This document shows, in pieces, positions 2,112 to 61,900 of a stretch of 64,000 nt of DNA. How positions within the stretch are numbered: position 1 is the first letter of the stretch; each line of letters begins with the position of its first letter. This DNA is from a bacterium (lineage in GTDB: Bacteria > Patescibacteriota > Dojkabacteria > SC72 > WJKH01): the NCBI GenBank assembly GCA_029547225.1, contig JAKPPS010000028.1, positions 12,405-76,404 of the forward strand, written 5' to 3'. A program made the translations under genes and the position numbers. Under the pieces are notes generated by a model that saw only the letters and a list, made by a program, of their open reading frames with translations, was not told where the DNA came from and did not search any database.

Positions 2112-5400
<3,289 letters not shown>

Positions 5401-38359: not shown

Positions 38360-38536
38360 ATGCAACAAGTTAAAGTTAGCCAAGTCAAAGACTTAAGTCA
38401 ACAAAGACAAAGATGTGAAGTATATTCAAGAGTTGTCGGCTATATCAGACCTGTCGCTCAGTGGAATAAGGGGAAAAAGGCTGAATGGAATTCCCGCAAA
38501 ACTTTTATTGAAGGATGTACGACTTGTTCTTGCTAA
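38360..38536 (+). CDS. 58-codon ORF encoding the NrdD glycyl-radical C-terminus (not in the supplied track, which omits ORFs under 60 aa)
   Basis: My translation: MQQVKVSQVKDLSQQRQRCEVYSRVVGYIRPVAQWNKGKKAEWNSRKTFIEGCTTCSC. It contains the RxxGY radical loop and the conserved WN.GK..E tail. It is in the same frame as nrdD. Confidence 0.6.
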   Translation: MQQVKVSQVKDLSQQRQRCEVYSRVVGYIRPVAQWNKGKKAEWNSRKTFIEGCTTCSC

Positions 38537-38608
38537 TACATATCTTGCAGGCTTGATTTCTTCATATGCTAATCTGAACTGATCAGATTGCAATAATATT
38601 TCTTATAA

Positions 38609-39394
38609 ATGAGACCTATATATTTTATCGAAAAATCTACTCTGTTGGATTATCCTGGCAAGATAGCCTCAATTATCTTCAATTGGGGCTGTAACTTTAG
38701 ATGTCCATTTTGTCATAATCCAGAGCTTGTAGTTGAGAGTCCGAGCTCAATGTTAATCAATAAAGATGGGGTGATTTCTTTTCTGAAAAAACGATTAGGG
38801 AAGATAGATGCTGTAGTTTTTACTGGTGGAGAACCTTTTGTAAATCCGGAAACAATAGATTTTGTTAAGGAGGTGAAGGATTTGGGTTTCCTCGTAAAGA
38901 TGGATACTAACGGTAGCTTTCCTGATAAATTGCAATATTTAATTGATAATCGTTTGGTTGATTATATTGCTATGGATATTAAGAACGATTTGACAACATA
39001 CTTAAGAACAATAGGACTTGAAAAACAGCACGAAGAATCTGTGAAACAACTAGGGGATATTGATATACACAATGATAATTCCGTGAAACAGAGCCCATTA
39101 AGCTTGTTAGAACGGGTAAAAGAAAGCATATCAATAATTATGGCAACTTCAGAAGCTAATTATCTGATAGATTATGAATTTCGTACGACTTTTGTACCTG
39201 GACTTCATTCAATTGATTCTGCTAAGGGTATTGGTGAATTGATACGTGGTGCAAAAATATTTTATGTGCAGAATTTCAGGCCTGGGAAAACATTGGATCC
39301 TTTATATTTGAAAAAGAATGGTTTTACTGATTCGGATCTGAAATCCTTTGCAGATACTATCTCAAAATATGTTGATGAGGTGGTTATTAGATAG
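38609..39394 (+). CDS. nrdG: Anaerobic RNR activating enzyme (radical SAM)
   Basis: CNFRCPFCHN (CxxxCxxC) near the N-terminus and a GGEP glycine-rich SAM motif. Sits directly downstream of nrdD. Confidence 0.9.
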   Translation: MRPIYFIEKSTLLDYPGKIASIIFNWGCNFRCPFCHNPELVVESPSSMLINKDGVISFLKKRLGKIDAVVFTGGEPFVNPETIDFVKEVKDLGFLVKMDTNGSFPDKLQYLIDNRLVDYIAMDIKNDLTTYLRTIGLEKQHEESVKQLGDIDIHNDNSVKQSPLSLLERVKESISIIMATSEANYLIDYEFRTTFVPGLHSIDSAKGIGELIRGAKIFYVQNFRPGKTLDPLYLKKNGFTDSDLKSFADTISKYVDEVVIR

Positions 39395-42032: not shown

Positions 42033-44876
42033 ATGCGAATAAGTATAGAGAGGAGTTTACTAGAATTATTTCCGGATGCAGTGGAGTATATTGTTGTGCT
42101 CAAAGGCTGTAGTAATATGACAGCTAAAAGCCGTGAAATAGTTGAATATATGGAATCGGCGCAAAAGAAAATGCGTTCTGGAGAAATGGTTTTCGATTTC
42201 GAAGATGATCCTCGATTTAAAAACTGGGATATTGTGCAAAAAAAAATAGCCCAAAATATCTTGAATAATTCAAATGCGTCAAATACTTCTATTTCAGACG
42301 ATCCTTATAAAGCGAGTTCACAAAATATTGATGGAGCAGGTGATAAAAGTATGCAACATAAAGCTGGAATATCTTCTCATGTCTCGTTAGTAAATAAAAT
42401 ATTGGCTGGTAAGGATCTTGCAAATATTAATCCAATTGTGAATTACTATAATATTTTTTCTGCTTATTACGGTCTGCCAATCGGTGCTGAAGATTTAGCA
42501 AAAGTATATGGCGACTTTGTTTTTAAAGTTTCTGACGGAGGTGAACCTTTTGTATCTATTTCCAGTAAAGATATTGAATCGATAAACCGGGGTGATGTTA
42601 TATTAACCGATGAGCTGGGCCCAACTTGTAAGGGGTGGAATCAGAAACAATCAGAGAGAGACAAAGTCGGGAAATATAGTACAGAAATTATGTTTTTCTT
42701 TGATCATATTGACGGCGATAATGGTAGTCTTGGTAATCTATATGAAAAGCCCATAGATTTTATTACTTCTGAAAACGCTTCGCTTGGAGAGGGTACTAAA
42801 ATAGATTTTCAACAATTGCTTCAATATTTTGTTTCAAAATTGGAATATTATTTTGGAGGAACATACGAGATATTTAGGCTAGACGGGAATAATATGATTG
42901 TTGATTTTGATGCGAATAATCTTAATGGTTCACAACTTAGAAATCTTACTTTACAAGAAAAACACCAGTACTTACAAAGCATCGTTGATGAAATATATAC
43001 AAAAGGAAATAAAGGTATAACAAAGAGAAAGGCGGAGAATCTCGGCTTGAAAAACACTTCTAGTCCAATTAATGTTATTGATAAGAAACTATTAGAATTA
43101 TGCCAGTCTAATGGTGTCTTGTTAGATCAGGATAGTTTTATGCTTCAATCTAAACATAACATCGAGAATGTTGAGTATTCTACTGCAATAGCAATGCGAG
43201 TCGCATCACAGATTGGTAAGCAACCTAAAGAAATTGCATTGCAAATCAAAGAGATAATATTATCCTGTAGTGAAATCGGTTCTTGTGAAGTTGCTGAAAA
43301 TGGCTTTATAAACCTTGTCATGTCAAATGAATTTTACCTTTCAAATCTGAAGAATTTTTATGAAAATTTTGATGATATTACGGAAAGTAATGCCGGTGAG
43401 AATAAAACAATATTAATCGAGATGGTTTCTCCAAATCCTAACAAAGCTTTACATTTAGGGCATATCCTAAATCTTTTTCTAGGCAAATCTCTCTTACGGA
43501 TTTTCAATAAAGTCGGTTTTAAAGCGGTTGAAGATTGTTTAGTAAATGATAAAGGTTTGCCAATTGCAAAAACTATATGGGCTATCAAAAAATATGGAAT
43601 TGATAGTAGTCCTGAGAAAGAGGGATTAAAGGAGGATCATTGGGTAGATAAATATTACGTCATGGGCGCCAATGATTTTAAAAATAGCTTATCAGTGCGT
43701 AAAGAGGTTAGGGCAATATTACGCTCTATAGAAAATGAAGATCCGGAGATTTTAGAAATCTGGAAGAGGGTTATATCGCATAGTGTAGAAGGTCAGAGAG
43801 CCACTCTAAAGCGTTTGGGTGAAGATTTCGGATATTTATGGTATGAACATGAAATCTACAAAATTGGGCGTAATATGATCGAGAGCCATATTGATGGGAA
43901 AAATGTTATTAAATTACCAGACGGAGTCGTTGTTGGAATCCTTGAGAAAACATATGGTGTTCCAGATGTTGTGCTTGTAAAATCCGATGGAACATCTTTG
44001 TATCATACTCAAGATCTTGCTCTTACAATGAAAAAGATTGAAAAATTTAATCCATGGAAAGCGATATGGGTTGTGGGGAATGATCAGATTGTACATTTTC
44101 AGAGACTATTTTCGCTCATAGATATGCTATCTGTTATGCCGATAGATAATCTGTATCATTATGCTTATGGATATGTTTTTGATAAAGATGGTAAAAGATT
44201 TTCTTCAAGATCTGGTGACGCATTAAGTGCTGACGAACTAATTGATTTGATACTTGATAGTGCACGAAAAGTGATTGAATCAAGAAAAGAATTTGCGAAG
44301 AAATCTCAAGAGGATTTATCAGAATCTAATGATGAGGATATTGTGAATAATTTAGTCGGTGACGAAAAAGAAAATATCTCTGAGAAGGTTGGATTGTCAG
44401 CTTTGAAATACGCCTTTTTAAGCACCGATCCATATAAAGATATCAGATTTGATATTGAAAAATCGTTGTCATTTAGCGGTAAAAGCGGTCCATATATCTT
44501 GTATGCATTTGTTAGGGCTAAAAGTATTTTAGAGAAAGCAGATCTAAATAAGGACAATGAAGAGGGTGATTTATTAAATAAAGTAGGGGATAATAATTCT
44601 GCTGTATCACTTGATGGATATAGTAAAAATCTTATTATTAAGCTTTTTGATTATCCTGATACAATTATTGCAAGTGCGAATAACTATATGCCTAGTATTA
44701 TTGCTGAATATCTTTATGACTTGTCTAAGGATTTTAGCTCCTTTTATGAAAATACCGATATCCTTGGAGATTCTACACTGGCAAAATATTATAAGTTGAT
44801 AATTATTTCGCTGTTTGAAAGAGTTATTTCTGATGGATTAGAGCTTCTGGGAATTGAGACTTTAGACCGCATGTAG
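42033..44876 (+). CDS. argS: Arginyl-tRNA synthetase with a ~340-aa N-terminal extension resembling a B3/B4-domain protein
   Basis: ArgRS part: N-domain (...VAENGFINLVMS), HIGH-type PNPNKALHLGH, DALR end (AEYLYDLSKDFSSFYEN), terminal ...LDRM. Extension part: ELFPD..., INPIVNYYNIFSAYYGLPIGAEDL, GGEPF, CKGWNQKQSERDKV. Confidence 0.9.
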   Translation: MRISIERSLLELFPDAVEYIVVLKGCSNMTAKSREIVEYMESAQKKMRSGEMVFDFEDDPRFKNWDIVQKKIAQNILNNSNASNTSISDDPYKASSQNIDGAGDKSMQHKAGISSHVSLVNKILAGKDLANINPIVNYYNIFSAYYGLPIGAEDLAKVYGDFVFKVSDGGEPFVSISSKDIESINRGDVILTDELGPTCKGWNQKQSERDKVGKYSTEIMFFFDHIDGDNGSLGNLYEKPIDFITSENASLGEGTKIDFQQLLQYFVSKLEYYFGGTYEIFRLDGNNMIVDFDANNLNGSQLRNLTLQEKHQYLQSIVDEIYTKGNKGITKRKAENLGLKNTSSPINVIDKKLLELCQSNGVLLDQDSFMLQSKHNIENVEYSTAIAMRVASQIGKQPKEIALQIKEIILSCSEIGSCEVAENGFINLVMSNEFYLSNLKNFYENFDDITESNAGENKTILIEMVSPNPNKALHLGHILNLFLGKSLLRIFNKVGFKAVEDCLVNDKGLPIAKTIWAIKKYGIDSSPEKEGLKEDHWVDKYYVMGANDFKNSLSVRKEVRAILRSIENEDPEILEIWKRVISHSVEGQRATLKRLGEDFGYLWYEHEIYKIGRNMIESHIDGKNVIKLPDGVVVGILEKTYGVPDVVLVKSDGTSLYHTQDLALTMKKIEKFNPWKAIWVVGNDQIVHFQRLFSLIDMLSVMPIDNLYHYAYGYVFDKDGKRFSSRSGDALSADELIDLILDSARKVIESRKEFAKKSQEDLSESNDEDIVNNLVGDEKENISEKVGLSALKYAFLSTDPYKDIRFDIEKSLSFSGKSGPYILYAFVRAKSILEKADLNKDNEEGDLLNKVGDNNSAVSLDGYSKNLIIKLFDYPDTIIASANNYMPSIIAEYLYDLSKDFSSFYENTDILGDSTLAKYYKLIIISLFERVISDGLELLGIETLDRM

Positions 44877-45204: not shown

Positions 45205-45281
45205 CGGGGTGTAGTTCAGTTGGCTAGAATGCTTCGTTCGGGACGAAGTGGTCGCACGTTCAAGTCGTGTCACCCCGACCA
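45205..45281 (+). tRNA. tRNA-Pro(CGG), CCA encoded
   Basis: Acceptor CGGGGTG/CACCCCG, anticodon stem CTTCG/CGAAG, loop TTCGGGA. The 3' 12 nt overlap the recombinase stop region on the opposite strand. Confidence 0.9.
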
Positions 45282-46757
45282 GTCTTGTCGATCGTTAAAA
45301 TTCAGGAAGTTATCAAACGGACTTTTGCCTATATAGCTTAATTTTTCGTTGGTTATAGTCAAGTTCGAGAATACAAAATTGATAATTTCTCTTTTTCCTT
45401 CATCATCTGCTCGTTTGAAAAGCCGTGACGCATTTTGTGTCAGTTCGAGAATTCTTAATCCAGTTTCAAAGTATATGTGATTGGCTTGTTTGTGTTTTTC
45501 CATGTCACGAATAGTTTGCTTTTCTGCTTTTACCTCTTTTTCAAACTTTTCAAGATATGTTTCTTTTGTGATGAGTCCGTCTAGCCTGTCATCATACAAT
45601 TGGTCTTTTCGTGATTGCGTTTTAGTTAGTTTTGCTTGTAGTGTTGACATTGCTTGATTATGAAAATCAGCTTCGCTTTTATGAGCATCTTTTAGTGTTT
45701 GCTTTAATACTTCAAATGTTTCTTTTGGAATTTTCATTGAACTTAAAACGTTTTCGATTTCTGTATTTAGTTTTTCTTCTCTCCAATATTGGTGTTTATG
45801 TCTCATTTTATACTCAGTACAGCGATAATATACATATCTGCCTTTTTGAATTTCTGTTGTATATGATGAGCCACAAACACCGCATTTAATAAGTCCACTA
45901 AACAGAAAACTGTTTTTGCGTTTATTCGGCTTCTTTCTGCTTCGTAAAATATCTTGCACTTTGTAGTATAGTTCTTCTGAAATTATCGGCTCGTGAATAC
46001 CTTTGTATTCTTTACTTTTCCATCTCATTATGCCAATATAAAAGGGATTTTGTAAGGTTACTCGTATCTTTTCTTTGCAAAGTGGTACTTCGGGTTTGCT
46101 TTTAGCATGTAGTCCTTCTTCAAGTAGTAGTTCACCAATTGTTTGAAAGCTGTATTCGCCAGTAGCATATAATTCAAACATTTTCTTAACAAATGGTGCT
46201 TTTGAAATATCAATATCGCAAGTATGTGTATCTTTATTGTTTTTATATCCAAGCGGTGCAGAAGCAGGCCAACCGCCTTGAGCCACTTTTTCCTCAAGTC
46301 CTTTTTTGACATCATCTCTCAAGTTATTGATATATCCTTTTGCCATTACTGCCTGTAAATCAAAGTTCATTAGTTCGTTTGACCTTGAGTCGTTGTTTAG
46401 AATAATTCCTTCTTTTACAAAATGGAATTCTTTTCCTGCTTTGATTAAATCATACACTTTAACAATGTCAGCAAAGTTACGAGCCACACGATCTATTTTC
46501 TCGATAACTGCAATTTGAATGTTGTCATGCTCTGTAAGGTAGGTAATCATTTCACTAAAAGCCTTTCTTCCTTCCTTTTTAGCTGATTCTGCAACCTGCC
46601 AATGCTTGATTATTTGTAAGTTATTCTTTTGAGCATAATTGATTATGTTTTTAAGTTGAGCATCAAGTGAATATCCTTCTTCCTGTTCTCGTGAAGATAC
46701 TCGACAATATGCAATAACCGCTCTTGGTTCGTCAGGTATAAAGTCATATTTGCTCAT
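45270..46757 (-). CDS. Large serine recombinase (integrase type)
   Basis: Catalytic N-domain AVIAYCRVSSREQ. Recombinase domain. Zinc ribbon CGVCGSSYTTEIQKGRYVYYRC. Coiled-coil C-terminal region. 495 aa. Confidence 0.9.
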   Translation of the reverse strand: MSKYDFIPDEPRAVIAYCRVSSREQEEGYSLDAQLKNIINYAQKNNLQIIKHWQVAESAKKEGRKAFSEMITYLTEHDNIQIAVIEKIDRVARNFADIVKVYDLIKAGKEFHFVKEGIILNNDSRSNELMNFDLQAVMAKGYINNLRDDVKKGLEEKVAQGGWPASAPLGYKNNKDTHTCDIDISKAPFVKKMFELYATGEYSFQTIGELLLEEGLHAKSKPEVPLCKEKIRVTLQNPFYIGIMRWKSKEYKGIHEPIISEELYYKVQDILRSRKKPNKRKNSFLFSGLIKCGVCGSSYTTEIQKGRYVYYRCTEYKMRHKHQYWREEKLNTEIENVLSSMKIPKETFEVLKQTLKDAHKSEADFHNQAMSTLQAKLTKTQSRKDQLYDDRLDGLITKETYLEKFEKEVKAEKQTIRDMEKHKQANHIYFETGLRILELTQNASRLFKRADDEGKREIINFVFSNLTITNEKLSYIGKSPFDNFLNFNDRQDWSG

Positions 46758-46794
46758 AAGTTTTAATGCTCAATTTAAATATCGAGTAAACTCG

Positions 46795-46919
46795 ATGTTA
46801 ACTGTGACGCTCGGAAATCTTAAATAAATTTAGATTTCTCTCGCTATCCTCGTTAATAACAAAAAAGGGCGACTCGTTGGACACAACTCCATTTGCATGA
46901 AATTGTACGAATCGCCCTT
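46795..46919. repeat. Inverted repeat A (left arm) bracketing the replication module
   Basis: Read on the minus strand: a large-loop hairpin (AAGGGCGATTCG...CGAGTCGCCCTT), then a T run, then a ~70-nt core (GTTATTAACGAGGATAGCGAGAGAAATCTAAATTTATTTAAGATTTCCGAGCGTCACAGTTAACAT) homologous to 47875-47940. Confidence 0.8.
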
Positions 46920-46965
46920 TATACTATCAAAATACCCTTTAATAGCGTTGGGTTCATGCAAATAA

Positions 46966-47199
46966 TTAAGTTGTGTCCATTTCAATATTATCATCTCGGT
47001 TAATTTTTGTTAAATCGAAGTTTTGTACCATTTCTTGAATTTTCAATTTGTTATCAATCTTTTCTAAGGTTTCAAAGAATTTTATAAAGTTAAATAGTGC
47101 TTCATATGCCTGTTTATCTGTTAGTTCAATACCGTAATCATGCAGGTATGCTTTCTGGAACTGCTTTATATTTTTCTTTATTGGGTCAGTTACCTGCAT
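46966..47199 (-). CDS. Hypothetical small acidic protein, apparently co-transcribed with the Rep-O-like gene
   Basis: 77-aa ORF starting 5 nt after the upstream stop and followed by the hairpin plus T run of repeat A. No motif recognised. Confidence 0.45.
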   Translation of the reverse strand: MQVTDPIKKNIKQFQKAYLHDYGIELTDKQAYEALFNFIKFFETLEKIDNKLKIQEMVQNFDLTKINRDDNIEMDTT

Positions 47200-47204
47200 G
47201 TATT

Positions 47205-47747
47205 TTAAGAAATGTATTTATAAATGTTTTTAATTGTATTTCGGCCCTCGGTTTGACTTGGATTAGTGAGGGTTTTCTTGATGTCGTTGTTAGTGATTTG
47301 CTCCATATCAGTAGAGTGTTTTACTAAGTTTCGTGTTAGTAATTTACTAAACTTTTTGTTCGATTTTTGAAGTGATTCACTAACCACCTTTTTAGTTATC
47401 CACATTTGGTTAGTTTTTCGTTTCCAAATAATAAGTTCTTTTAAAACAAGCTGATTTAGTTCATGAGAAATGTCAGATGAGTAAATTCCCACTAATGTAA
47501 AATCAGACGGTTTTAGACGTGCTACAGCTCGATTACAACCAATTGAAAAGCGAACAATGAGGAGTAGGATTTTTATCTGTCTTTTTGATAGTGATTTGTT
47601 GAAAATGATTGACTCAAAAAGTAGATTTGAGAATTTGAAAAAGCCTTTAGATTCCAGATCTTTAATATTAAGTCGTGTAGAACGCTCTACAAGTTCAGGA
47701 AAGTTTTGTTTTAAGTATTCTCCTACTGTTTTCATCAATAATTTCAA
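47205..47747 (-). CDS. Replication-initiator-like protein (phage lambda O N-terminal type winged helix); TTG start
   Basis: GFFKFSNLLFESII...LSKRQIKILLLIVRFSIGCNRAVARLKPSDFTLVGIYSSDISHELNQLVLKELII follows the Phage_rep_O N-terminal pattern. Confidence 0.6.
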   Translation of the reverse strand: MKLLMKTVGEYLKQNFPELVERSTRLNIKDLESKGFFKFSNLLFESIIFNKSLSKRQIKILLLIVRFSIGCNRAVARLKPSDFTLVGIYSSDISHELNQLVLKELIIWKRKTNQMWITKKVVSESLQKSNKKFSKLLTRNLVKHSTDMEQITNNDIKKTLTNPSQTEGRNTIKNIYKYIS

Positions 47748-47812
47748 GCTCTACAGACTGCCCAGTAGGTGGCAGTTGTAGATTTTATACAAGTAAGCGT
47801 ATAATATACAAA

Positions 47813-47940
47813 AGAATCACCTCCTACTGACCATGGATTCCCGTCCGGCGGTTTGCAGGTGATTCTCTTTTTTTATTAACGACGCTGAGCGAGTCAAATC
47901 TGAAATTTATTTCAAGATTTGCGAGCCAGCTAGTTAACAT
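47813..47940. repeat. Inverted repeat B (right arm) bracketing the replication module
   Basis: Hairpin AGAATCACCT...AGGTGATTCT (47813-47866), T7 run (47868-47874), then the core ATTAACGACGCTGAGCGAGTCAAATCTGAAATTTATTTCAAGATTTGCGAGCCAGCTAGTTAACAT. Confidence 0.8.
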
Positions 47941-48540
47941 GACTCTGTCATTATTGTGTTTTCTATATCAATTATCCTTCAAGAAAAATTCGAAGTCAAA
48001 AATCTGTTGATTTTTCGGACTTTCTCGACATTCGGTTTATCTTGTATTCAAGGTCGTTTTCAGAGTTTTTCAAAATTTAAAAATATAGTGTCCACGCTAT
48101 AGCGTCCGCACTATGTTTTTTAAGCATTTGCATACAATCAACTGCTTATATTCCCCCTATTGTCTTATGATTTCGCGGTCGGTGTCAAAAAACATTCGGT
48201 TTCAAGGCACTTCTCGACACACTCATTCCTCCGTAACCATCGCAAGATTTTAAGTTTTAAGAAAATTCAAATTATATGGTTGACTGTATACAGTTGACCA
48301 TAAGAAAATATGCTTCTTTTGTATAGTTTCCTATAAAATCAAGTTTTTACAAAATATTTTCCAAATCCAAACAACATGAAAAGTTCTATTAAATGCCGTT
48401 CAATCAATGAAAAGTATTAATCTAAAAAATACTAAATACCTCGTATACGAGATCTCGTCCACGATATATTTACTGCAGAAATTGTAATGTAAGTTTAAAG
48501 CTTGTAAAATTGGTATTAATAAATTGTAATTAAATGAAAT

Positions 48541-49224
48541 ATGAAATTGCTTTTATATAGCGGATTTTCTGAACAAAACAGTTTAGATGATGAGTTAAAA
48601 ACAGCTTTGAATGCTTTTCAACATAAATCTTTAACAATCTTTTTATCAAACTCAGATGATTTTAAATCAAAGTATGTCTATCCGATTACAGACTATTATA
48701 AGAGATGCGGTTTTAATGATGTTTCTGTGTGTTTGTACTCTCAAACGAATGAGAATACTAACAAAATCTCTGCAGAATATCCTGATATCAAGTTCATAGG
48801 TTTAGATAGTGCTTTTGAATCGGACGCAATTTTTCTATCAGGTGGAAGCAATTATTATTTCCTAAATTCATTAAGAAAGAATAATTTAATAGGAAAATTG
48901 CAAGAGTATGCAAGGTCAAATCACCTGTTAATTGGTATGAGTGCAGGTAGTATGCTTATGCAAAAAGATATCAAAAACTCAGAAATTCCGAGTTATGATC
49001 CAGAGCCCAACCCAGTAGGAGATATTTCCTTGGAGTCTTTAAATCTTATTCCGTTTTACTTTTTTCCTCACTATGACGGCGATACAAGATTTTTATCAGA
49101 AGTAAAAGAATTTTCAAACAAAACAAAAGATAGATGTTATATCTGTACTGATAATGATGGTTTATATATAGAGGGAAATAATGTTGTTCTAAAGGGCAAT
49201 ACAATAGAAATTAATCCACAATAA
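48541..49224 (+). CDS. Peptidase S51 (dipeptidase E-like) / type-1 glutamine-amidotransferase-like protein
   Basis: Nucleophile elbow LLIGMSAGSMLM, later FFPHYD histidine context. 227 aa. Confidence 0.7.
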   Translation: MKLLLYSGFSEQNSLDDELKTALNAFQHKSLTIFLSNSDDFKSKYVYPITDYYKRCGFNDVSVCLYSQTNENTNKISAEYPDIKFIGLDSAFESDAIFLSGGSNYYFLNSLRKNNLIGKLQEYARSNHLLIGMSAGSMLMQKDIKNSEIPSYDPEPNPVGDISLESLNLIPFYFFPHYDGDTRFLSEVKEFSNKTKDRCYICTDNDGLYIEGNNVVLKGNTIEINPQ

Positions 49225-49451
49225 ATTACAACACCAAGCACAAATTTAAGTCGTGAGTAGCTCACAAGATTACACACACAGGGTAATCGAAGTCGAGGAA
49301 GTGATTGGGTGGAGTCCGAAGGAGTCCACCCAATCACCTACGAAAGACGACAATTTGTGCGGAAGGATAAGGGTTTATATCTTACCGTTCAACTGGATGT
49401 ATCCGGAGGGTCGGAAACGTCATGTAGGAGTCCAACTGGATTCATCTGATT

Positions 49452-50015
49452 TTAAAGTAATTTTCTTGGCTGACTTAAAACAATTACTGTTGAAAACAGC
49501 CCTAATAAAGCCATTAAAACGAACAAAACGTTAAAATTCAGGTAGTAAACTATAAAACCTCCAATTAAGGAAGCAATAGCAAGTGAAAAATTCTGTACCA
49601 GTTTCCATGTTGAATATTCATTAATTTCAGCTCCTTTATCGAGGTGTTTTGCAAATATTGAATCAAATGCAGGAGATCCTACAGCTTCACCAATTCCGAG
49701 TATTACTTGAATAAAGATAAACATTAAAAGACTATTTGTAAAAATATATAAAATCCATGATATGACTCTAATGATAAAACCAGCAGCAAGTAAATATTCT
49801 TTTTCTTTGATTTTATCTCCGTATCTAGCGACAATAAAAGTAAAAATTGTTGCAGAAAGCATAAACACAAACCATGAAAAACTCACAGAAAGAATATTTG
49901 CATCAAACTTTTCGGCGAATATGGCATATAACGGACCAAGTAAACGATCTGCAAATACAAATATACCATTTGATATAAACAATACTTTTAATGCGTTTTG
50001 ATTAGTTATTTTCAT
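49452..50015 (-). CDS. MFS transporter, N-terminal six-helix half only (possibly a truncated remnant)
   Basis: 187 aa with MFS-like TM1-6 (ARYGDKIKEKE loop, GIGEAVGSPAFDS). No second half is encoded downstream. Confidence 0.55.
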   Translation of the reverse strand: MKITNQNALKVLFISNGIFVFADRLLGPLYAIFAEKFDANILSVSFSWFVFMLSATIFTFIVARYGDKIKEKEYLLAAGFIIRVISWILYIFTNSLLMFIFIQVILGIGEAVGSPAFDSIFAKHLDKGAEINEYSTWKLVQNFSLAIASLIGGFIVYYLNFNVLFVLMALLGLFSTVIVLSQPRKLL

Positions 50016-50023
50016 ACTTTTAC

Positions 50024-50998
50024 TTATAAAATTAGCCCACGTAATGTTTCAGTCACAAGTGGCATATTAGGTTCAGAGGATAGAATCGTAATAAGTAAAT
50101 TTTGAGATTTGTTAATAATAATATATTGTCCATCTGAGCCATCTCTGAAGACATATCCATCTCGAGAAATGAAAGAAAAGTAACCAACTCCAATTTTTGG
50201 AAGTACTCTTTCAGGCTTGTAATAATCAGGTGTTTTTATTTTTAATGAACACATTTCATGTATCCATTTTTCAGGGATAATCTGATTCCCATTGTATCGT
50301 CCACAATAAAGTAGCAACTGACCAATTTTGTGAAAATCCAAATGAGTCAAACTCAGTCCAGTACTCGCCATACAATACTTTCCATATTTCCCCCATAAGA
50401 ATTCTGATATATCTAATTTGCTGAAAATTTGTTCTTCAATGAACATATCAAGGTCAATATTAAAAGCTTCTTTGAATAATACGGCAATCAGAAATGGCTC
50501 AACATTATTATATGCAAAGCGATTTCCTACCTCATACGGCAATTCAAAGTTCAGTGCATACTCTAAAAGTTTTTCTTTATCAATGTTCTGAATAAATCTC
50601 TCTGACATCATTTGTTCTTCGTATCCAGTAGTATGGGTCAATAGATTTTTTATCGTCCATTCTTCAATCTTTTTTAAGTTTTCTTTGTTTGTTATATTTA
50701 CTAACCCTTTTATTATTGGATAAACCTTAGTATCCAACGTAATTGGTTTGTTATTAACGAGTAAACGTTGTTCAATTGCTAATCCGACAGCCATAGCGAC
50801 TAATAGTTTTGAACAGCTTCGGATACGATGTAATTGCTCGGTATTAAAATAGTGTTTTGATAAATGACCATTTTGTTCAATATAAACACTATCAATATCT
50901 ACTTGCTTTCCGTTAATAGATAGCTTTTCTAAATTTTTTATAAAATCTTCAATATTTATCATGTTGTCTTTTAATTTCAAACTGTTTGAGTATAGCAT
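50024..50998 (-). CDS. Beta-lactamase-related serine hydrolase (class C / PBP4*-like fold)
   Basis: SxxK motif SCSK (RIRSCSKLLVAMAVG) and YxN motif (FAYNNVEP). Confidence 0.8.
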   Translation of the reverse strand: MLYSNSLKLKDNMINIEDFIKNLEKLSINGKQVDIDSVYIEQNGHLSKHYFNTEQLHRIRSCSKLLVAMAVGLAIEQRLLVNNKPITLDTKVYPIIKGLVNITNKENLKKIEEWTIKNLLTHTTGYEEQMMSERFIQNIDKEKLLEYALNFELPYEVGNRFAYNNVEPFLIAVLFKEAFNIDLDMFIEEQIFSKLDISEFLWGKYGKYCMASTGLSLTHLDFHKIGQLLLYCGRYNGNQIIPEKWIHEMCSLKIKTPDYYKPERVLPKIGVGYFSFISRDGYVFRDGSDGQYIIINKSQNLLITILSSEPNMPLVTETLRGLIL

Positions 50999-51295
50999 GA
51001 ATAAACCATTTCTTTATAGAACATGATTCATATATTCGGATTCAAAAGCGTATACTTATTCAGAAAGTTTACATAATACTCAATCGGGCTCAATATTGAC
51101 CACCAATCCAATTTCGTGATAACGTCAGTTAGAGTCGATGTCTATAAATGTAACGAATAGGAACAGCGGGAGACCCAACTAAGCGGTGGTCACCCCGATT
51201 TTGCGACGCAAAATTTGAGATTTAATAATGAAAAATATTTCCAATAATCTATCTTCTATCTGAGCACCAATATAAAGATTAACTGGGTTACTCGA

Positions 51296-53485
51296 TTACA
51301 TTATCTTCTTTCGATAAACTAGCTCAACACCACATAAACCGATCAAGCTAATAATTCCCATAGCTACACTACCTATAATTCCACCATTTGTATTTGGATT
51401 TGCTGGATCATAGTAAGCTAGTCCATACACTGAGAAACCGTCGGTATCAAATGTTATTGTATCGTTTGTAGGATCGTATACAGCATCAAGTTCTGTAATC
51501 TCACCATTGTGCTCACGGATGACTTTATATTGTGCATGATCTTGAAGTGAATCACCCAACTTTAGAGTGATGGATGAATCAGAATCTAATTCTGTAATTG
51601 TAGTCCTCCATGCGTCATCAGTAGAGCCTTTATATATTAATTCATTTAATGAAAGATCTAAATAAGACCCAATTTCATACTCACCAGCAGCTTCAACAAA
51701 ACCTGTTGTGTCAAATTCTGAAGCTTCATCGATTAATAATTCAGCATTACCGTTTATTTCTCCTTCAGGTAAAGTGATATTTGCTCCAGAAATCAAATCA
51801 GTTTCAAGATCAATAATATCTGGGTTCTCTTCGAAAATTGCGCTAATATGAATATGATTTGCAGGCATGATGAATGAGTAAGATGCTCTTCCAGCTTCAG
51901 GAAAAGTAGGATTTCCATTTATCCCTCCTGAAACATACTGATATCCGTAATTAGGAATTAACTCAATTGTAACTTCCGTACCTTCTTCGATACTGAAATC
52001 ATAAAAACCACCAGATACGAATTTATAACCATTTGCAGCTATAACATTTACTGTCCCGTTAACAACTCTGGAATCATCAGAATCGTCATAATTATAACCA
52101 AGTTGGTAAAGGGCTTTTGCAGTAGACTGAAGTAAAAAAGTACCCTCTCCAGATGTCATAATATATTTATCATCTGCATGTGTACCTTCAACACAATCGA
52201 CAATTATTGGATCGACATTTTCCGAGTCAGTTCCAGAAAATTCTACCCAAGTCCAATATCCGGCTTGTGGAATGAAGGTTCCAAGTCCTGTTGTATAAGA
52301 AAGATCAATAGAACCACCTGCAAGAACTAAAGCAGAAATAACGTTTTCGGTTGCAATACTGCTTGATGCTACTGTAAGAATTGCATTTTGAGTTGCACTG
52401 ATAAGCATGCCTTCGCCTTCAGCCGGTGTCGGGTTGTAGTAATAGAGAGCCTGATTAACACTATTAATTGTTAGATTACCAAATCTTAAAGCTACTTCAG
52501 AAGCTCCAATGCCAAATGGGGCAGGGTTTTCGGATGTACCAACGAAGACGTCTCCATCTCCTCCAAGAACATTACCTTCGGTAAAGATACCTCCTACAAA
52601 CTGTACATCTCCGATATCAGGGCCCATCCCAAACAATACGTCAACACTGCCATCGAAATTGACAGACAAATTATCTACGTTTTCTGAAACAGTTATATCA
52701 CCACCATTTGCATTTATACTTATCATTCCATCACCACTTCCAGTAATGTATGGAAATGTTGAAACTTGAGTCGCATCAATATTTATTTGATATCCTCCGT
52801 ACATACTGTACTCAATTGCCCATCCTTCACCTTCATAAGAGGTAACCTGAGGATCGGCAGTCTCATCGATTGTTATTAATCCATCAATAAATAATTGTAA
52901 CGGCTCGCCTGCAGGAGGTTCACCGCCACCTCCCGGTGCAGTAAAGGTATTACCTTCTACAATATATGTATCTTCACAATTTACTAAGAAACCTTGTGAA
53001 ACAGTTACAGTTATTGAATTTGAAGGCTCTCCGATTGTGAGTCTACCACCTGCTCCGATAGAAATAGCTGGGCTAGAAGAGTCTAATGCTGCTATTGTTA
53101 AACTTGATGAATCTCCTGTAATTGTTATGTCGCCTCCCATAGCAAGTAGTGCGGAACTGTCAGTCGTTGCAGTAAGAGTATTTGTACCAACTAATTGAAT
53201 ATCTAAATCACCGGATGAGGAAATCGATTCAAGATTTGTATCAGTTAATGTTAGGATTTTAGTATCTGTATTAAAAGTTACTCCACTAATACCATGTGCT
53301 TCGTTATATCCACCTCCGGTAGTGTAGATAGTTGTTCCATTGACATCTAGGCTTTGGATAGGAGCATCTAAAGCAAATGCTGTTTGAATCGGAATGAAAA
53401 TCATTATCAACATAAGTAGAATCGATGTAACAGATTTAGATCGTAATCTGCTTTTTATGTTACTTACAATCATAATTGAGGGCAT
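51296..53485 (-). CDS. Cell-surface protein with a sortase-B-type sorting signal
   Basis: Signal/TM N-terminus, G/S/T-rich beta-helix-like repeats, InlB-B-repeat-like module (PNYGYQYVSGG...ISAIFE). C-terminus is NPNTN-GG, then hydrophobic IIGSVAMGIISLIGLCGVELV, then the YRKKIM tail (51299-51400). Confidence 0.8.
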   Translation of the reverse strand: MPSIMIVSNIKSRLRSKSVTSILLMLIMIFIPIQTAFALDAPIQSLDVNGTTIYTTGGGYNEAHGISGVTFNTDTKILTLTDTNLESISSSGDLDIQLVGTNTLTATTDSSALLAMGGDITITGDSSSLTIAALDSSSPAISIGAGGRLTIGEPSNSITVTVSQGFLVNCEDTYIVEGNTFTAPGGGGEPPAGEPLQLFIDGLITIDETADPQVTSYEGEGWAIEYSMYGGYQINIDATQVSTFPYITGSGDGMISINANGGDITVSENVDNLSVNFDGSVDVLFGMGPDIGDVQFVGGIFTEGNVLGGDGDVFVGTSENPAPFGIGASEVALRFGNLTINSVNQALYYYNPTPAEGEGMLISATQNAILTVASSSIATENVISALVLAGGSIDLSYTTGLGTFIPQAGYWTWVEFSGTDSENVDPIIVDCVEGTHADDKYIMTSGEGTFLLQSTAKALYQLGYNYDDSDDSRVVNGTVNVIAANGYKFVSGGFYDFSIEEGTEVTIELIPNYGYQYVSGGINGNPTFPEAGRASYSFIMPANHIHISAIFEENPDIIDLETDLISGANITLPEGEINGNAELLIDEASEFDTTGFVEAAGEYEIGSYLDLSLNELIYKGSTDDAWRTTITELDSDSSITLKLGDSLQDHAQYKVIREHNGEITELDAVYDPTNDTITFDTDGFSVYGLAYYDPANPNTNGGIIGSVAMGIISLIGLCGVELVYRKKIM

Positions 53486-56063: not shown

Positions 56064-56771
56064 TTGCGGATAATGCAGTCAAAGTCTTCACTAAACAATT
56101 CAAAAAATGGTACACTAATAAACATGAAAAACTACTTTATAACATTTGAAGGAATAGATGGGTGTGGCAAAGACACACAGTTATTTAGGCTTGCAAAAGC
56201 AATAAAAGATAGAGCCATAAAAGGTATCGGCTCCAAGTATGATAATTTCTGGATAACCAGGGAACCGACGATGATAACTGAAGCGGGAAGGACAATCTCG
56301 CGTTTGATCAAGGGAGAATCGGTAACAAAGGAGGATGCTACAAAAGGATTTATTGGAGATAGGATAGAGCATTCGCAGATTATTAAACAACAGCTAACAC
56401 ATTCTCATGTACTATGTTCAAGATACGATTTCTCAACATTAACTTATCAGATGGTGCAGGGTATGGACTTCGAAACACTTTATAAAATGCACAAATATAA
56501 TCAGAAAAATGGCGCCCTTATCCCTGATATTACAATAATATTTGATTTACCTGCCGAAGTTGCTTTTCAGAGAATAAAGCAAAGAGGAGAGAAACTAGAA
56601 GTATTATACGAAAAAATCGATTTTTTATCCAAGATAGTGGATTGCCAGAATGAGTGTATCGAAAAATTGAAAAAATCAGGGCGAACTATAGTTCTAGTTG
56701 ATGCAACTTTGCCAATCGATGGTGTTACAGAAGATATGATTACGAAGATTAACAATATTGTTGCCAAGTAA
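56064..56771 (+). CDS. tmk: Thymidylate (dTMP) kinase family protein; likely start is Met21 at 56124
   Basis: P-loop FITFEGIDGCGKDTQ, TREP, and DRY-like CSRYDFSTLTYQ. Confidence 0.8.
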   Translation: MRIMQSKSSLNNSKNGTLINMKNYFITFEGIDGCGKDTQLFRLAKAIKDRAIKGIGSKYDNFWITREPTMITEAGRTISRLIKGESVTKEDATKGFIGDRIEHSQIIKQQLTHSHVLCSRYDFSTLTYQMVQGMDFETLYKMHKYNQKNGALIPDITIIFDLPAEVAFQRIKQRGEKLEVLYEKIDFLSKIVDCQNECIEKLKKSGRTIVLVDATLPIDGVTEDMITKINNIVAK

Positions 56772-56883
56772 TACTTGAATCTATTAGTGTAAAAGAAACT
56801 GAGTTAACCAAGTTAATCAATGAAATCTTGGTGATCCAATTATTTAAGATTCAAAGCATGATGGTTGGATTCAGATTCGTTGA

Positions 56884-58788
56884 CTATTCTGTAGTTTCGA
56901 GCATAGAAGAATTGTTATTATATCCGTTTGCTTGTAGGTTAAATGATTTCGCATAAAGGCCATTGAGTGATAATAACTCTTCGTGTGTACCATTTTCAGC
57001 AATTTTACCTTCGTCAATAGCAATAATTTTATCAGCATTTCTTACAGTGCTAAATCTGTGAGATATAATTATAACAGTCTTGTTTTCAAAGAAACCATAG
57101 ATTTTATTAAAAATTTTGTATTCAGATATTGCATCAATAGCCGATGTAGGTTCGTCAAAGATTGCGAGTGGGGCGTTACGATAAAAGAATCGAGCTATAG
57201 CAATTTTCTGTTTTTGTCCTGTACTTGGTCTGATACCACCGGTGTATTTTTCACTTAGAATCTGATCATATCCGTTGGTAAAGTTTGATATAAATTCATG
57301 TGCATCTGCATTTTTTGCAGCTTCTATTATTTTTTCTTCATCCATCTCTTTTACAGATTTTCCTAAATATATATTCTCCTTTGCTGTGAGATTATCATAG
57401 AAATTATATTCCTGGAAAAGGATTCCGAGATTCTTGTAATAGTCATCAATATTGAGTTTCTCTATATCGATACCGTCGATTAATATTTTACCTTTTGTAG
57501 GGTGGTATGTTTTTGCAATTAATTTGATTAAAGTTGATTTACCAGCACCATTTTTACCAACAAAAGCGACTTTTTCCCCTTGATTAATTTTTAGACTAAA
57601 GTCTTTTATTACGTATTTATCACTTTTTGGGTATTTGAACCATACATTTTTAAATTCTACTGATGGTGGATGATCGAGTCTAGGTAATTTAATGTTACCA
57701 TTGTTTTCTGAAGGTTCAAGATTAAGCAATTGGAATAGATCTAGAACTTTAATAGTAATTTCATTAGTAAATGATAAAGATTCAATAATACTGCCTAATG
57801 AAGATTGTAACTGATCTATTGAACTTTTCTGGAAGTTAAAATCACCAATAGAAATGTATCCTTGAATTGTATTCCAGATAATATATAGGAACGATAATGT
57901 ATCAATAATTGAGTCGCCTGTGTCGAGGAAGAAACTAGTTAAATTTCTCCCATAAGATATTTTTAATATTCCTTTATTGAATTTGTTGTAAAATTTCTGG
58001 ATTTTTGAATCAAGAAAGCTGTACGAGCCAATAATACTGATTTCTTGAAGCGTTGCTGGATTTTGTAGAAAATCAATTGATTTATTGGCTTTTCTTCTAT
58101 CTTCTGTATTATCAACCGACCAATCAAATTCTTTTTTTATGTAATGTTTATCAGGGAAATATTTTATGATTGTAAAGATGATTTGAATAGGTATGATTAT
58201 GGGCAAAAACTTTAAGATTATTACTGAATAGATAATTGATTTAACAATCTGAGCTAATAGATTCAAAGCTTCTTGTAAAAGATAAAATGTGTCATATGCC
58301 CATTCCGTACTCCTCTTGATAAGATTTACAATTTCTGGGTCTTCAAGTTGTTCAATTCTTAGAGTTTTTATTTTTTTATAGATTATTCTGTCTAAATAAC
58401 TTCTGCTTATTTGCCTTAACGATCGGCTTGAATGGATTTTTACTGCTCCTAATAAACTATATCCGAATATGAAATATAGAAGTAAATAGATTAGATATTT
58501 AATGATATTTGTTAAGTCAGTGCTATTGTTCTGAATTAAGAACATTATTTCGTCAAGAATCTTTGAGCTAACAATAATAAAGAAAAGATATCGTATATTA
58601 ATCAATATTGAAGAAACAACAAGTAGAGAGGACAATAGGGGAGAAATTTGAAAATATATCTTAAATGTTTGAGCTATGACTAAGAATGTACCCTTAATTC
58701 CGACCTTTTTTATTTCGGCCTTTTCTTCAGGTAGATTTGTAGTATTATTGTTTTTTTTCTTAAAGATATTTTTAATATTCATAAACAT
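56884..58788 (-). CDS. ABC exporter, fused permease-ATPase (MsbA/MdlB type)
   Basis: Six-helix TMD, then GKNGAGKSTLIK, signature STGQKQKIAIAR and Walker B AIFDEPTSAID. Confidence 0.9.
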   Translation of the reverse strand: MFMNIKNIFKKKNNNTTNLPEEKAEIKKVGIKGTFLVIAQTFKIYFQISPLLSSLLVVSSILINIRYLFFIIVSSKILDEIMFLIQNNSTDLTNIIKYLIYLLLYFIFGYSLLGAVKIHSSRSLRQISRSYLDRIIYKKIKTLRIEQLEDPEIVNLIKRSTEWAYDTFYLLQEALNLLAQIVKSIIYSVIILKFLPIIIPIQIIFTIIKYFPDKHYIKKEFDWSVDNTEDRRKANKSIDFLQNPATLQEISIIGSYSFLDSKIQKFYNKFNKGILKISYGRNLTSFFLDTGDSIIDTLSFLYIIWNTIQGYISIGDFNFQKSSIDQLQSSLGSIIESLSFTNEITIKVLDLFQLLNLEPSENNGNIKLPRLDHPPSVEFKNVWFKYPKSDKYVIKDFSLKINQGEKVAFVGKNGAGKSTLIKLIAKTYHPTKGKILIDGIDIEKLNIDDYYKNLGILFQEYNFYDNLTAKENIYLGKSVKEMDEEKIIEAAKNADAHEFISNFTNGYDQILSEKYTGGIRPSTGQKQKIAIARFFYRNAPLAIFDEPTSAIDAISEYKIFNKIYGFFENKTVIIISHRFSTVRNADKIIAIDEGKIAENGTHEELLSLNGLYAKSFNLQANGYNNNSSMLETTE

Positions 58789-58920
58789 CTAATTTACACT
58801 TTTGAATAATATAATCTCTCATTATACTCTATAGGGTTAGAATTATCAACAAAAATTGTTATAGTATATGTTGCGTTAAAGCTAATATTTGTTTTGGCTT
58901 GTATTTAGAAAACGATTGAG

Positions 58921-61900
58921 TTACAAATTTGAATAATTAGACGCAGAATCCTTCAAAAACTCCCCAGTAGCACTATTCTTTGTATTAATTACATCTTGCA
59001 GAGAACCTTGGACGATTATTTGACCACCATTTTTGCCACCCTCTGGTCCTAGATCGATGATCCAATCAGCAATCTTGATAACATCTAAATTGTGTTCTAC
59101 AACGATAATGGTATTTCCTTTATTAACCAAGCGTCGTAAAACGGTCAGTAGTCTATCAACATCGTAAAAGTGAAGTCCAGTTGTTGGCTCATCAAGAATG
59201 TATAAAGTATGCCCCTTAGTGTTCTTTGAAAGTTCTTTTGCTAGCTTAATCCTTTGAGATTCACCTCCAGAAAGTGTAGTAGCTGGTTGGCCAAGTTTAA
59301 TATAGTCTAAACCGACTTGCTCAAGCAGCTCCAATTTGTTTCGGATATTTGTGAAGTTCTTGAAAAATTCCTTTGCTTCGCTCACAGTCATATCTAATAC
59401 TTCTGATATATTTTTACCTTTGTAGTCGATCTGAAGTGCATCAGCGTTATATCTTTTTCCATGACATGCGTCGCAAGTTACATACATATCAGGAAGGAAT
59501 TGCATTTCTATCTTTAATTGCCCTTCACCGTGGCACGTTTCGCAACGGCCACCTTTAACATTAAAACTAAATCTTCCTGCGTTATATCCTCTTGCTTTTG
59601 CTTCTGGTGTGGATGCGTAAATATCTCGGATGAAGTTAAAAATACCCGTATAAGTTACTGGATTTGAACGAGGTGTCCTGCCGATAGGTGATTGATCAAT
59701 ACTGATTACTGAGCGGATATTATCCATGCCCTCGAGACTTTGGTATTCTCCTTCAGGTAAAGGAAGGTTGTTTATTTTTCTTTCCTTGATAAGTCGATTT
59801 ATAATTGCAGGGTATAGTGTATCGTTAATCAGAGAGGATTTGCCACTTCCGGAAACACCTGTTACACAGATGAATTTCCCTAATGGAAAAGAGGCATTTA
59901 TCGACTTAAGATTATGGGTTGTGACACCACTTATAGATATCATCTCATCAGAATCGGTAAATGTATCCCTGATAGGCAAGCTAAGAGCTTCGTCGCCCAC
60001 GATAAGAGATCCATTTAAGTATTTGGCAGTCAACGAGCCGCCTTGCTTGATCGACTCCATAGTTCCCTCTGCGACTATCTTCCCGCCATGTGAACCGGCG
60101 AGAGGTCCTACATCGACTATCCAATCTGCGCTCTCCATAGTTTCTTTGTCATGTTCGACTACAACCAAGGTATTTCCTAAATCACGCAACCTAATAAGTG
60201 CTGTTATGAGTTTAGAAATATCCTTCGGGTGAAGTCCGATTGATGGTTCATCAAGTACATAGAGGACTCCTGATAATCCTGTACCTATCTGTGATGCAAG
60301 TCTGATTCTTTGTGATTCCCCTCCGGATAGCGTGTTTGCTCTTCGGTCGAGAGATAGGTAATTAAGTCCAACATTGTTGAGAAATTGAAGTCTTGCAAGT
60401 ATTTCATTTAGTATTGTTTTACCAATCTCTTTCTTTACACCGCTCAATTGAATATTCTCAAGAAAGTCTTGGCATTCGTTGATTGGCATAGCAGTTAATT
60501 CGTTTATATTGATTGATTTGGTTGAGCTATTCTTAAAATTTTTGGAATTTTCATTAGACTTTTTTTCTATTGAAGTTATAAGAACGCTTAGGGCGTAGGG
60601 TTTTAATCTTTTACCTTCACAAAGTGAACAAGTCTGATCGATCATATATTTTTCCATATCTTGTCTGATAAAATCAGAATCTGTTTCAAGATATCTTCTT
60701 TCAAGTTGGGTAACGACTCCTTCAAAATGTGCATCATAAATCTTATTTTGTCCAAAACGATTACGATATTTTACTGTGTATTTGCTTTTTTTACCTTTTC
60801 CGTAAAAAATGAGGTCAAAAATCTCCTTTGAGTATTTTCCGATAGGAGTATCAAGGTCGAAATCATGTTCGAGTGCAACCTGTTCCAATAATTTTATTGA
60901 CCATGAATCAAGATTTGTTGTTACTCCTGACCAAGGGAAAATACCGCCTTCGTGAATAGTTAAATTCGGATTATAAATTCTCTCCACCTCAATCTGCTTA
61001 ATAAATCCCAGACCAGAACATTTTTCACACGCTCCTTGTGGTGCATTAAATGAGAATGAAGCAGGTGTTATCTCCGGAAATGAAATACCGCAGTTGTGAC
61101 AAGTATTTTTTTCTGCAAAAAAATGTTCCTTTTCTTCGATAAGTGCGATTATCTCACCATCTGACATTGATGAAGCGAGCTCGATCGCATCTCTAAGCCT
61201 TTTTGAGTAATCTCCGACATATTCTGTGTGTTTATTCTTACTAAACTCATTTAATTCGTTCTTTATTTTTTCATCTATAGATAATCTGTCGATAATAAGC
61301 TCAATGTTGTGTATTTCGTATTTTTTCAGATTAATTTTATCCGCCTCATCGAGACTGAACATTTCGCCATCAACTCGTACTCTTAAAAAACCTTTCCCTA
61401 ATAATCGTTCAAAAAGCTCTCTGTATTCACCCTTTTTGCTTCTTATCAAAGGAGATAATATCTGTAGCTTAATAGTGTTTTCTTTTGAGAAATCAAAATC
61501 TTTAAGAATATCGATAATCCTGTCAGTTATCTCATCAATAGTTTGAGATTGGACAAGTTGTCCGCATTTTGGACAGTGAGTTTCGCCAACTCGTGCAAAA
61601 AGCAATCTAAGGTAGTCGTAGATTTCTGTAATTGTCCCAACTGTAGATCTTGGATTGTTGCTTGAAGTTTTTTGATCGATTGATATAGCTGGGGATAGGC
61701 CAGTTATGCTTTCGACATCGGGTTTTTCCATGAGGCCAAGAAATTGTCTTGCGTATGATGAAAGGGACTCAACATATCTTCTTTGTCCTTCAGCGTAAAG
61801 TGTGTCAAAAGCAAGGGAAGATTTACCGCTTCCTGAGACTCCAGTAAATACGACCATCTTATTTTTTGGTATTTTGAGGGAAACATTTTTGAGGTTGTGA

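Follow-up and report, generated by a model that had tools for sequence, protein, structure and literature searches.

An integrative element of Dojkabacteria at a tRNA-Pro gene, whose large serine recombinase gene probably spans the joint of the circular form

Serine integrases are a main tool for the insertion of large DNA and in nature mostly target protein-coding genes. To our knowledge, their directionality has so far been explained only by separate directionality factors. They were not known to target tRNA genes according to Mageeney et al. (2020; PMC7192596), who listed 14 of 297 computational candidates at such genes, for which proof was still needed. The use of tRNA genes by these enzymes has so far only been suspected on the basis of a few computational calls. 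Here, we describe a locus in a 64,000-nt stretch of a Dojkabacteria contig (JAKPPS010000028.1; hereafter the window), where a large serine recombinase (LSR) gene runs into the 3' end of a tRNA-Pro(CGG) gene. We consider it likely that window positions 45279-51138 represent a 5.86-kb integrative element at this tRNA gene, with strand exchange at the trinucleotide CGA, a recombinase open reading frame (ORF) spanning the joint of the circular form and a probable capacity for self-replication. Together with its relatives, the window provides nucleotide-level junctions for a serine integrase clade at the last bases of tRNA-Pro.

The prophages and integrative and conjugative elements of the phiC31, Bxb1, A118 and TP901-1 type resemble this element in their three-domain LSR, in an integrase gene located at the element edge and in the recombination of attachment sites (attP and attB) that have almost no sequence in common. 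Unlike these, the element appears to target the last three bases of a tRNA rather than a protein-coding gene, its attP probably lies inside the integrase ORF, and only the tRNA-side half of the target site is conserved between its hosts. The tRNA islands of tyrosine integrases (P4-like; Islander/TIGER) share with it the use of a tRNA 3' end with the gene left intact, an integrase adjoining the tRNA, and stacked integrations that leave partial tRNA copies (here in the comparison loci L079, L099 and L074). In contrast to the element, however, they rely on another enzyme family and on repeats of 15-50 nt instead of 3 nt; here, only the CCA would be restored.

Prochlorococcus tycheposons are small, cargo-bearing elements with a site-specific recombinase and replication genes, which use specific tRNA genes, including tRNA-Pro(TGG), and build islands from tandem arrays with partial tRNAs; 910 of 937 carry a tyrosine recombinase and 27 a large serine recombinase (Hackl et al., bioRxiv 10.1101/2020.12.28.424599). 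The element resembles them in organisation only (tRNA site, recombinase with replication and cargo genes, arrays with partial tRNAs) and differs in its replication genes and host phylum. We know of no attP-spanning ORF described for tycheposons. Crossover within an ORF, by which integration changes the product of an element gene, links the element to two systems that use tyrosine integrases. In SSV1-type archaeal integrases attP lies inside the gene, and the tyrosine integrase is split into two large parts. In mycobacteriophage BPs, the crossover lies within the ORF of an element gene and removes a C-terminal segment, with changes in protein stability and activity (PMC4557955); the protein truncated is the repressor and not the integrase. 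Unlike in both, here the C-terminal 35 residues of the serine integrase itself would be swapped for an end encoded by the antisense strand of the tRNA. In open-access text, no report of an attP inside a serine-integrase ORF was found.

By its domain architecture, the recombinase is an LSR, featuring a Resolvase domain (PF00239, E = 3.3e-23, residues 14-163) with the motif YCRVSSREQ and its nucleophilic serine, a Recombinase domain (PF07508, E = 2.7e-15) and a Zn_ribbon_recom domain (PF13408, E = 1.3e-12), and matching the phrog_95 integrase family at E = 2e-83. Homologues at E <= 1e-30 number 782, none were found in IMG/VR, and the best match among 50,697 phage records is at 31% identity or less. 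Solved-structure relatives are limited to fragments of A118 and TP901-1 (A118 integrase: E = 1e-12 over ~100 residues). The protein ends ...DWSG-TGA inside the tRNA gene (window 45205-45281; ARAGORN; Rfam tRNA model, 60 bits): the codons TGG TCG GGG TGA are the antisense of ...TCACCCCGA-CCA, and the G495 codon and the TGA stop are thus read from the tRNA antisense strand.

Judging from its relatives, the element is real and mobile, as the same backbone occurs with other cargo, at other tRNA-Pro genes and in other genomes. This backbone comprises the LSR, a small ORF, a RepO-like gene, an ORF-free region, a hairpin and a terminal segment, here called L, while the cargo occupies two variable slots. 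In L099, L100 and L102 it is found at equivalent sites with different cargo and flanks and with the ends CGA/CCA and ...GAGTCGA/ (the slash marks the joint). L099 stems from another species with the same synteny (NrdD, CTP synthase, arginyl-tRNA synthetase (ArgRS), tRNA-Arg, tRNA-Pro), whose host genes are 74-80% and whose recombinase is 87% identical to those of the window; its element carries a 55-aa ORF and an ABC ATPase, and a 1.2-kb segment with a 5'-3' exonuclease gene is stacked between tRNA and element. In L100, where the flanks are different, the element adjoins tRNA-Pro(TGG), with PheS beyond the far end, and carries a DHH-family protein and a 181-aa ORF, whereas the cargo of L102 consists of a 130-aa ORF, an inositol phosphatase and a beta-lactamase-fold gene. 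At 5860 bp, the window copy is longer than those of L099 (5063 bp) and L100 (5012 bp). At 54-59% identity, the more distant elements L064, L080 and L081 have retained the replication gene, the small ORF and the recombinase as a module, and they too terminate in tRNA-Pro sequences. In L074, two copies of L (101-185 and 850-935) bracket a HAD-hydrolase gene downstream of tRNA-Pro(GGG), which looks like a stack of decayed elements; ATCCCCGA is found ~95 nt past the second copy. The element shows cargo shuttling between species and is among the very few defined mobile elements of candidate phyla radiation (CPR) bacteria.

The element ends could be placed by comparison of these copies. The junction CGA/CCA-rec (rec denoting the recombinase gene) is constant in the window, L064, L079, L096-L100 and L102, and to the left of the CCA stand the tRNA in the window, CTCTCCGA of a different tRNA-Pro in L100, ACTCCGA in L102, a 50-nt segment X followed by the 10-mer GTCACCCCGA in L079, and a segment W in L096-L099. 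At this junction, the 3' strand of the acceptor stem matches the 5' strand of the respective host (CACCCCGA in the window, CTCTCCGA in L100); the tRNA itself is identical in L079 and L099, where other sequences come after it. At the opposite end, the 87-nt L (51052-51138) is conserved in the window, L099, L100 and L102, always terminates in ...GTCAGTTAGAGTCGA (GTCAGAGCCGA in L099) and is followed by five unrelated sequences, namely X (window, L099), TTTGAGTAC... (L100), ATCAGACAG... (L102), and AATTTAG... and TTTTTGA... (both L074). The sole sequence common to the tRNA/LSR junction and the end of L is CGA. The fixed end of L with its five followers, the host-matched acceptor strand and the restriction of common sequence to CGA argue that strand exchange most likely took place within these last three bases of the tRNA, with the exact exchange dinucleotide among them. 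Exchange at this position would confine the element to 45279-51138 (5860 bp), which would contribute only the CCA, while the tRNA body, including the 10-mer, would be host DNA. Its right end would probably be 51138, i.e., 60 nt before the end of the 10-mer. In our own reading, the joined ends form a dyad, TAACGTCAG-N20-CGATCGTTA, centred on CGA/CCA.

An initial annotation of this DNA had proposed an LSR-driven integrative element at tRNA-Pro, which is borne out by the recombinase domains, the stop within the tRNA and the backbone in L099, L100 and L102; its left junction was placed exactly where we find it, and its observation that the recombinase ends inside the tRNA as antisense of the tRNA 3' end holds as well. 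Its caveat that serine integrases need no homology between attachment sites is in line with ends that share only CGA. Its remark on other tRNA genes without encoded CCA agrees with our data, as six of the eight other tRNA genes in the window lack it, the exceptions being two in the rRNA spacer of the rRNA operon. It had further described a new tRNA 3' end supplied at the left and the old end displaced to the right, a boundary that L074, L099, L100 and L102 move to 51138.

The reverse complement of L, read in the frame that continues ...D-W-S of the recombinase, yields TLTDVITKLDWWS(I/M)LSPIEYYVNFLN(K/R)Y in all full copies, and it holds the last 35 LSR codons and the stop as they would be read in the circular form (S494-TLTDVITKLDWWSILSPIEYYVNFLNKYTLLNPNI-stop). 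Among six copies of L, 13 of the 21 variable sites are third codon positions in this frame, and replacements are conservative. The frame is stop-free over 29 codons in all copies of L, the other five frames contain stops, and L has no conserved start codon. This pattern represents coding-type conservation, and a free form would encode a recombinase of 529 aa. Integrated forms measure 495 aa in the window (ending G-stop), 513 aa in L100 and 505 aa in L081, with tails that are tRNA antisense. Since L continues the LSR frame, integration would swap the tail of the recombinase for a G-stop; in the integrated window, the tail frame closes two codons upstream of the joint. When 1.84 billion representative proteins were searched exhaustively with the tail peptide, one 52-aa ORF was returned (58% identical, E = 7.5e-4).

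A mechanism that would account for this arrangement starts from a circular form in which the ends are joined and the recombinase gene crosses the joint. Here, attP would consist of the P arm (the end of L, ...GATAACGTCAGTTAGAGT), CGA and the P' arm (CCAGTCTTGTCGATCGTTA..., the 3' end of the recombinase gene). The junction comparisons, with CGA common to both ends, suggest that the LSR would pair this attP with an attB at the 3' end of the tRNA-Pro gene and exchange strands within the final CGA. The tRNA would keep its whole body and gain a genome-encoded CCA, while the recombinase gene would lose its last 35 codons, moved 5.9 kb to the other end of the element, and would end in tRNA-antisense codons instead (G-stop here; in other hosts, 18-20 residues are added). 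Replication of the excised circle could be carried out by the RepO-like initiator together with the conserved ORF-free region and hairpin, and the 77-aa product of the small ORF could act as directionality factor. The circular junction would then read ...GTTAGAGTCGA/CCAGTC and the empty site tRNA...CCCCGA/TGTCTATAAATG, with attP-B as ...ACGTCAGTTAGAGTCGA/CCAGTCTTGTCGATCG and attB-B as ...GTCGTGTCACCCCGA/TGTCTATAAATGTAAC.

Several observations weigh against this interpretation. Neither of the two forms by which the initial annotation had proposed to verify the element was recovered. Searches for an empty site via the exact flank proteins (ArgRS, sortase, sortase variants) returned only contigs that carry the element, so that all of the ~20 same-species contigs recovered are element-bearing; a scan of genome contigs with ArgRS gave relatives at 33% identity only, and a metagenome scan with the tRNA 3' 21-mer gave 64 loci, none of this strain, none with TTTTGCGACGCAAAA after the tRNA and none an empty site. 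Contig ends near the junctions (L012, L088, L092), checked as graph branches, all run on into element-bearing sequence. A circular or attP junction was found neither in the 102 fetched loci nor in IMG/VR. Likewise, no protein with LSR and tail joined was found in the databases, and a query with a recombinase-plus-tail peptide came back empty. As no joined-form protein or contig was found, translation and function of the tail are presumed, and the codon-position test draws on six related copies. Unusually for serine integrases, the B' side of the target lacks conservation from host to host, and L100 features a near-copy of its own tRNA end ~85 nt past L. Finally, the alternative boundary of the initial annotation agrees with the repeat of the 10-mer at 51189 and with the X-10mer-CCA-rec junction of L079.

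Some of these points could also reflect that the element was once mobile and is now an inactive island, whose recombinase no longer excises it, which we regard as unlikely. The identical site in all ~20 contigs of the species, recovered from many anaerobic-digester samples, and the lack of a circular junction in the loci searched would fit this explanation, as would the integrated gene lacking the conserved tail, a premature TGA after the catalytic serine of the recombinase in the sister strain L079, and recombinase fragments beside IS1595 in L096-L098. However, the window has an intact recombinase, small ORF and RepO-like ORF, related copies occupy three other tRNA-Pro loci, and between L079 and the window the element part is 89% identical compared with 97% in the host flanks, which suggests turnover. 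The element may still be active today.

In L079, the TGA at ~720-790 directly follows the catalytic serine codon (RVS-stop), and the recombinase is called as 449 aa; this variant is also present in other samples (P0002, P0131). The fragments in L096-L098 (178 and 89/138 aa, ~85% nucleotide identity) adjoin an IS1595 transposase and are surrounded by type I restriction-modification, Fic and other defence-like genes. The segment W, 110 nt in length, is conserved before CCCCGA-CCA-rec in L096-L098 and L099.

The 10-mer offers another, in our view rather improbable, placement of the boundaries. Here, attP would be X-GTCACCCCGA-CCA-rec with exchange inside the 10-mer (e.g., at TC), and an element of 45269/45279-51198 would bring along a new copy of the tRNA's last 7-10 nt with the CCA and displace the original end and its terminator to 51189-51213. 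The circular junction would read GCGGTGGTCACCCCGA/CCAGTC and the empty site tRNA...CCCCGA/TTTTGCGACG, with attP-A as ...AGCGGTGGTCACCCCGA/CCAGTCTTG and attB-A as ...GTCGTGTCACCCCGA/TTTTGCGACGC. The 10-mer is indeed limited to two positions on one strand, 45269 and 51189, which are 5.9 kb apart, and is followed by CCA in the tRNA copy and by TTTTGCGACGCAAAA in the distal copy, all as initially described; with an expected count of 0.02 in the window and at least two copies in 0 of 100 shuffles, this is even rarer than the chance of about 1 in 10 given there. Moreover, L079 has X-10mer joined straight to CCA-rec, X ends in TGGTC, which in our own reading forms a short dyad with ACCCC-GACCA, and an analogous ...ATGGTCTCTTCGA lies ~85 nt past L in L100, a recurrence that keeps this explanation alive. 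Against it stands that L ends at one fixed nucleotide before five different followers and that X was found only in the species of the window and L099. Close elements (~86% nucleotide identity) would each need a core matching a different tRNA-Pro, and with an LSR that stops at the TGA in both forms, there would be no explanation for the coding-type conservation of L. In addition, the identity between window and L099 steps from ~88% to 100% at 51140 and not at 51198. The far end offers a direct 10-nt repeat of the tRNA 3' end at 51189 versus a comparative end 60 nt earlier with a 3-nt repeat.

With exchange at CGA, 51139-51198 would probably be an older partial-tRNA scar of an earlier event, or a pseudo-attachment site, and not the attachment repeat of this element. 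The order tRNA/X-10mer/flank could accordingly represent an older state of the locus, with related elements entering later at either ...CCCCGA end. We had considered the X-10mer-CCA-rec arrangement of L079 as an intact attP that would prove the initial boundaries and dropped this idea, as L074, L100 and L102 show the fixed end of L. We rejected a chimeric assembly of L079 and L099, since exact sequence matches at the joints do not exceed 18 nt. In L079 (2071-2330; window orientation 8719-8981), the X-10mer unit sits between the tRNA region and CCA-rec, in the order tRNA-Pro, terminator hairpin, 200-nt insert, X-10mer, CCA-rec, with a 21-nt tRNA 3'-end repeat bounding the insert. Small non-coding units seem to move at this tRNA-Pro. 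The last 34 nt of the insert are also found before the 21-mer in the unrelated contig L064, and an Rfam scan of the element and the L079 spacer returned tRNAs only.

A phage satellite or defective prophage mobilised by a Dojkabacteria helper phage, instead of a plasmid-like element, is very improbable: the replication gene is of the phage O/DnaD-loader type, the element is small and without transfer genes, and tycheposons include comparable forms resembling phage-inducible chromosomal islands, yet five complete or near-complete copies contain no capsid, terminase, packaging or interference genes, and the recombinase has neither IMG/VR relatives nor closer phage-database counterparts than those given above.

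The arrangement might extend well beyond Dojkabacteria. Among the 120 best LSR homologues (38-43% identity, several phyla), 50 end in W-x4-[DGE][SLT]-N, which is the antisense read of CCA, discriminator, acceptor stem and T-loop, and many others stop 2-5 residues past a W, while some homologues (P0060, P0065, P0101, P0020) have tails that do not resemble tRNA; for L058, L080, L081 and L100, such antisense-tRNA C-termini were confirmed at the DNA level. The whole clade seems to sit at tRNA 3' ends, and from the sequences compared it appears to read mainly one half-site and to tolerate different isoacceptors. We tentatively propose, as a generalisation that is nearly as probable as not, that this clade from CPR bacteria, Omnitrophota, Planctomycetota, Elusimicrobia and others consists of tRNA-3'-end specialists with attP in their own ORF and an integrase tail that switches upon integration. 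A free element would encode a longer integrase with the conserved tail, and an integrated one a tail-less or tRNA-antisense-tailed form, which could alter integrase directionality, stability or autoregulation. If true, the integration-dependent tail would give serine integrases a novel means of sensing their integration state. The probable location of attP within the ORF and the size of the tRNA-targeting serine integrase clade are in our opinion the more interesting result.

The features of the element and its surroundings are listed in Table 1.

Table 1. Features of the putative element and its attachment region in the window.
Feature	Position	Strand	Remarks
Host tRNA-Pro(CGG), acceptor to discriminator	45205..45278	+	B arm of the putative attachment site; ARAGORN and Rfam
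Last 3 tRNA bases, CGA	45276-45278	+	most likely exchange region
CCA	45279..45281	+	probably element-supplied; first 3 element bases; antisense of recombinase Trp493 codon
Large serine recombinase (LSR)	45270..46757	-	495 aa integrated form; PF00239, PF07508, PF13408; phrog_95 integrase
Conserved non-coding block with hairpin	46862..46931	.	between small ORF and recombinase start; 81-83% identity in distant L064, L080
77-aa ORF	46966..47199	-	homologue in 7 of 7 elements compared, 32-100% identity
RepO-like/DnaD-like replication initiator	47205..47747	-	N-terminal winged-helix domain only; PF04492, phrog_16826, phrog_2365
ORF-free backbone region, putative origin	47748..48471	.	palindromes 48076-48123, 48275-48302, 48433-48472
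Cargo 1, S51-family (PepE-like) peptidase	48541..49224	+	peptidase block 48472-49214 is an insertion relative to L100 and L102
Conserved hairpin, 37 nt	49301..49337	.	inside conserved backbone block 49215-49453; z = -5.7
Cargo 2, N-terminal half of major facilitator superfamily transporter, 187 aa	49452..50015	-	
Cargo 3, beta-lactamase-fold serine hydrolase, 324 aa	50024..50998	-	80% identical copy is L102 cargo
Terminal segment L, putative P arm of attP	51028..51138	-	conserved from 51052; CGA at 51136-51138 is the right-end copy
Segment X (50 nt, 51139-51188) and 10-mer GTCACCCCGA	51139..51198	+	partial tRNA 3'-end copy
Palindrome TTTTGCGACGCAAAA, terminator-like flank trailer	51199..51213	+	100% conserved with flank in L099

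Domain searches agreed with the gene content listed in the initial annotation, except for its iteron region: a search of 47740-48545 for arrays of at least three repeats found none, and 47748-48540 holds only two-copy repeats of 9-15 nt and three palindromes. Positions 47954-48471 are conserved at 74-76% in L100 and L102, and the block 48472-49214 with the S51 peptidase is an insertion relative to these two. The RepO-like protein matches PF04492 at E = 1.7e-12 (48.2 bits versus a cut-off of 28.7), while its score against TIGR01610 (33.6) is below the cut-off of 45.5. The 77-aa protein had no match in Pfam, PHROG or NCBIfam and is a candidate directionality factor or regulator. The non-coding block upstream of the recombinase may be regulatory. 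The 37-nt hairpin, with 16 pairs of which five show compensatory changes, is conserved in all six elements compared. In relatives, its place is upstream of the replication gene, and it may serve as an origin element or encode a small RNA.

The composition of the element, which the initial annotation had proposed to compare with the flanks, partly sets it apart. Its tetranucleotide distance of 0.187, compared with 0.129 +/- 0.02 (max 0.18) in 41 host windows, is the largest of 42 windows and makes it the most deviant 5.9-kb window, whereas GC content (0.325 vs 0.344) and GC skew do not mark it beyond the effect of gene orientation.

Proteins of the window are annotated as Candidatus Dojkabacteria (Patescibacteria) in public records, and some further observations concern this host. 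X, the 10-mer, the trailer and the 3' 600 nt of the adjacent sortase-substrate gene (window 51141-51900) are 98-100% identical between the window and the L099 species. Deeper in this gene the identity becomes a mosaic of 78-98%, with housekeeping genes at 74-80%, which suggests that the end of the sortase-substrate gene was recently exchanged between the species. At ~56300-61400 (L082 13356-18434), a 632-aa ABC ATPase adjoins a 1013-aa UvrA-like protein on the minus strand, and a distant homologue of this ATPase is cargo in the L099 element. The B3_4 domain is typical of the beta subunit of phenylalanyl-tRNA synthetase; here, it forms the N-terminus of the 947-aa ArgRS (42033-44876), an unusual fusion whose version in the L099 species has 1001 aa. 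The anaerobic ribonucleotide reductase NrdD (window 38400-39300; L001 18222-20819) is called as a 778-aa protein with a separate 58-aa C-terminal piece in all strains and in L099. Finally, the 23S rRNA match at 2113-5400 measures 3288 nt against a model of 2925 positions, which implies an insertion of ~360 nt; introns or expansions of this type have been reported for CPR bacteria, and this may be one of them.

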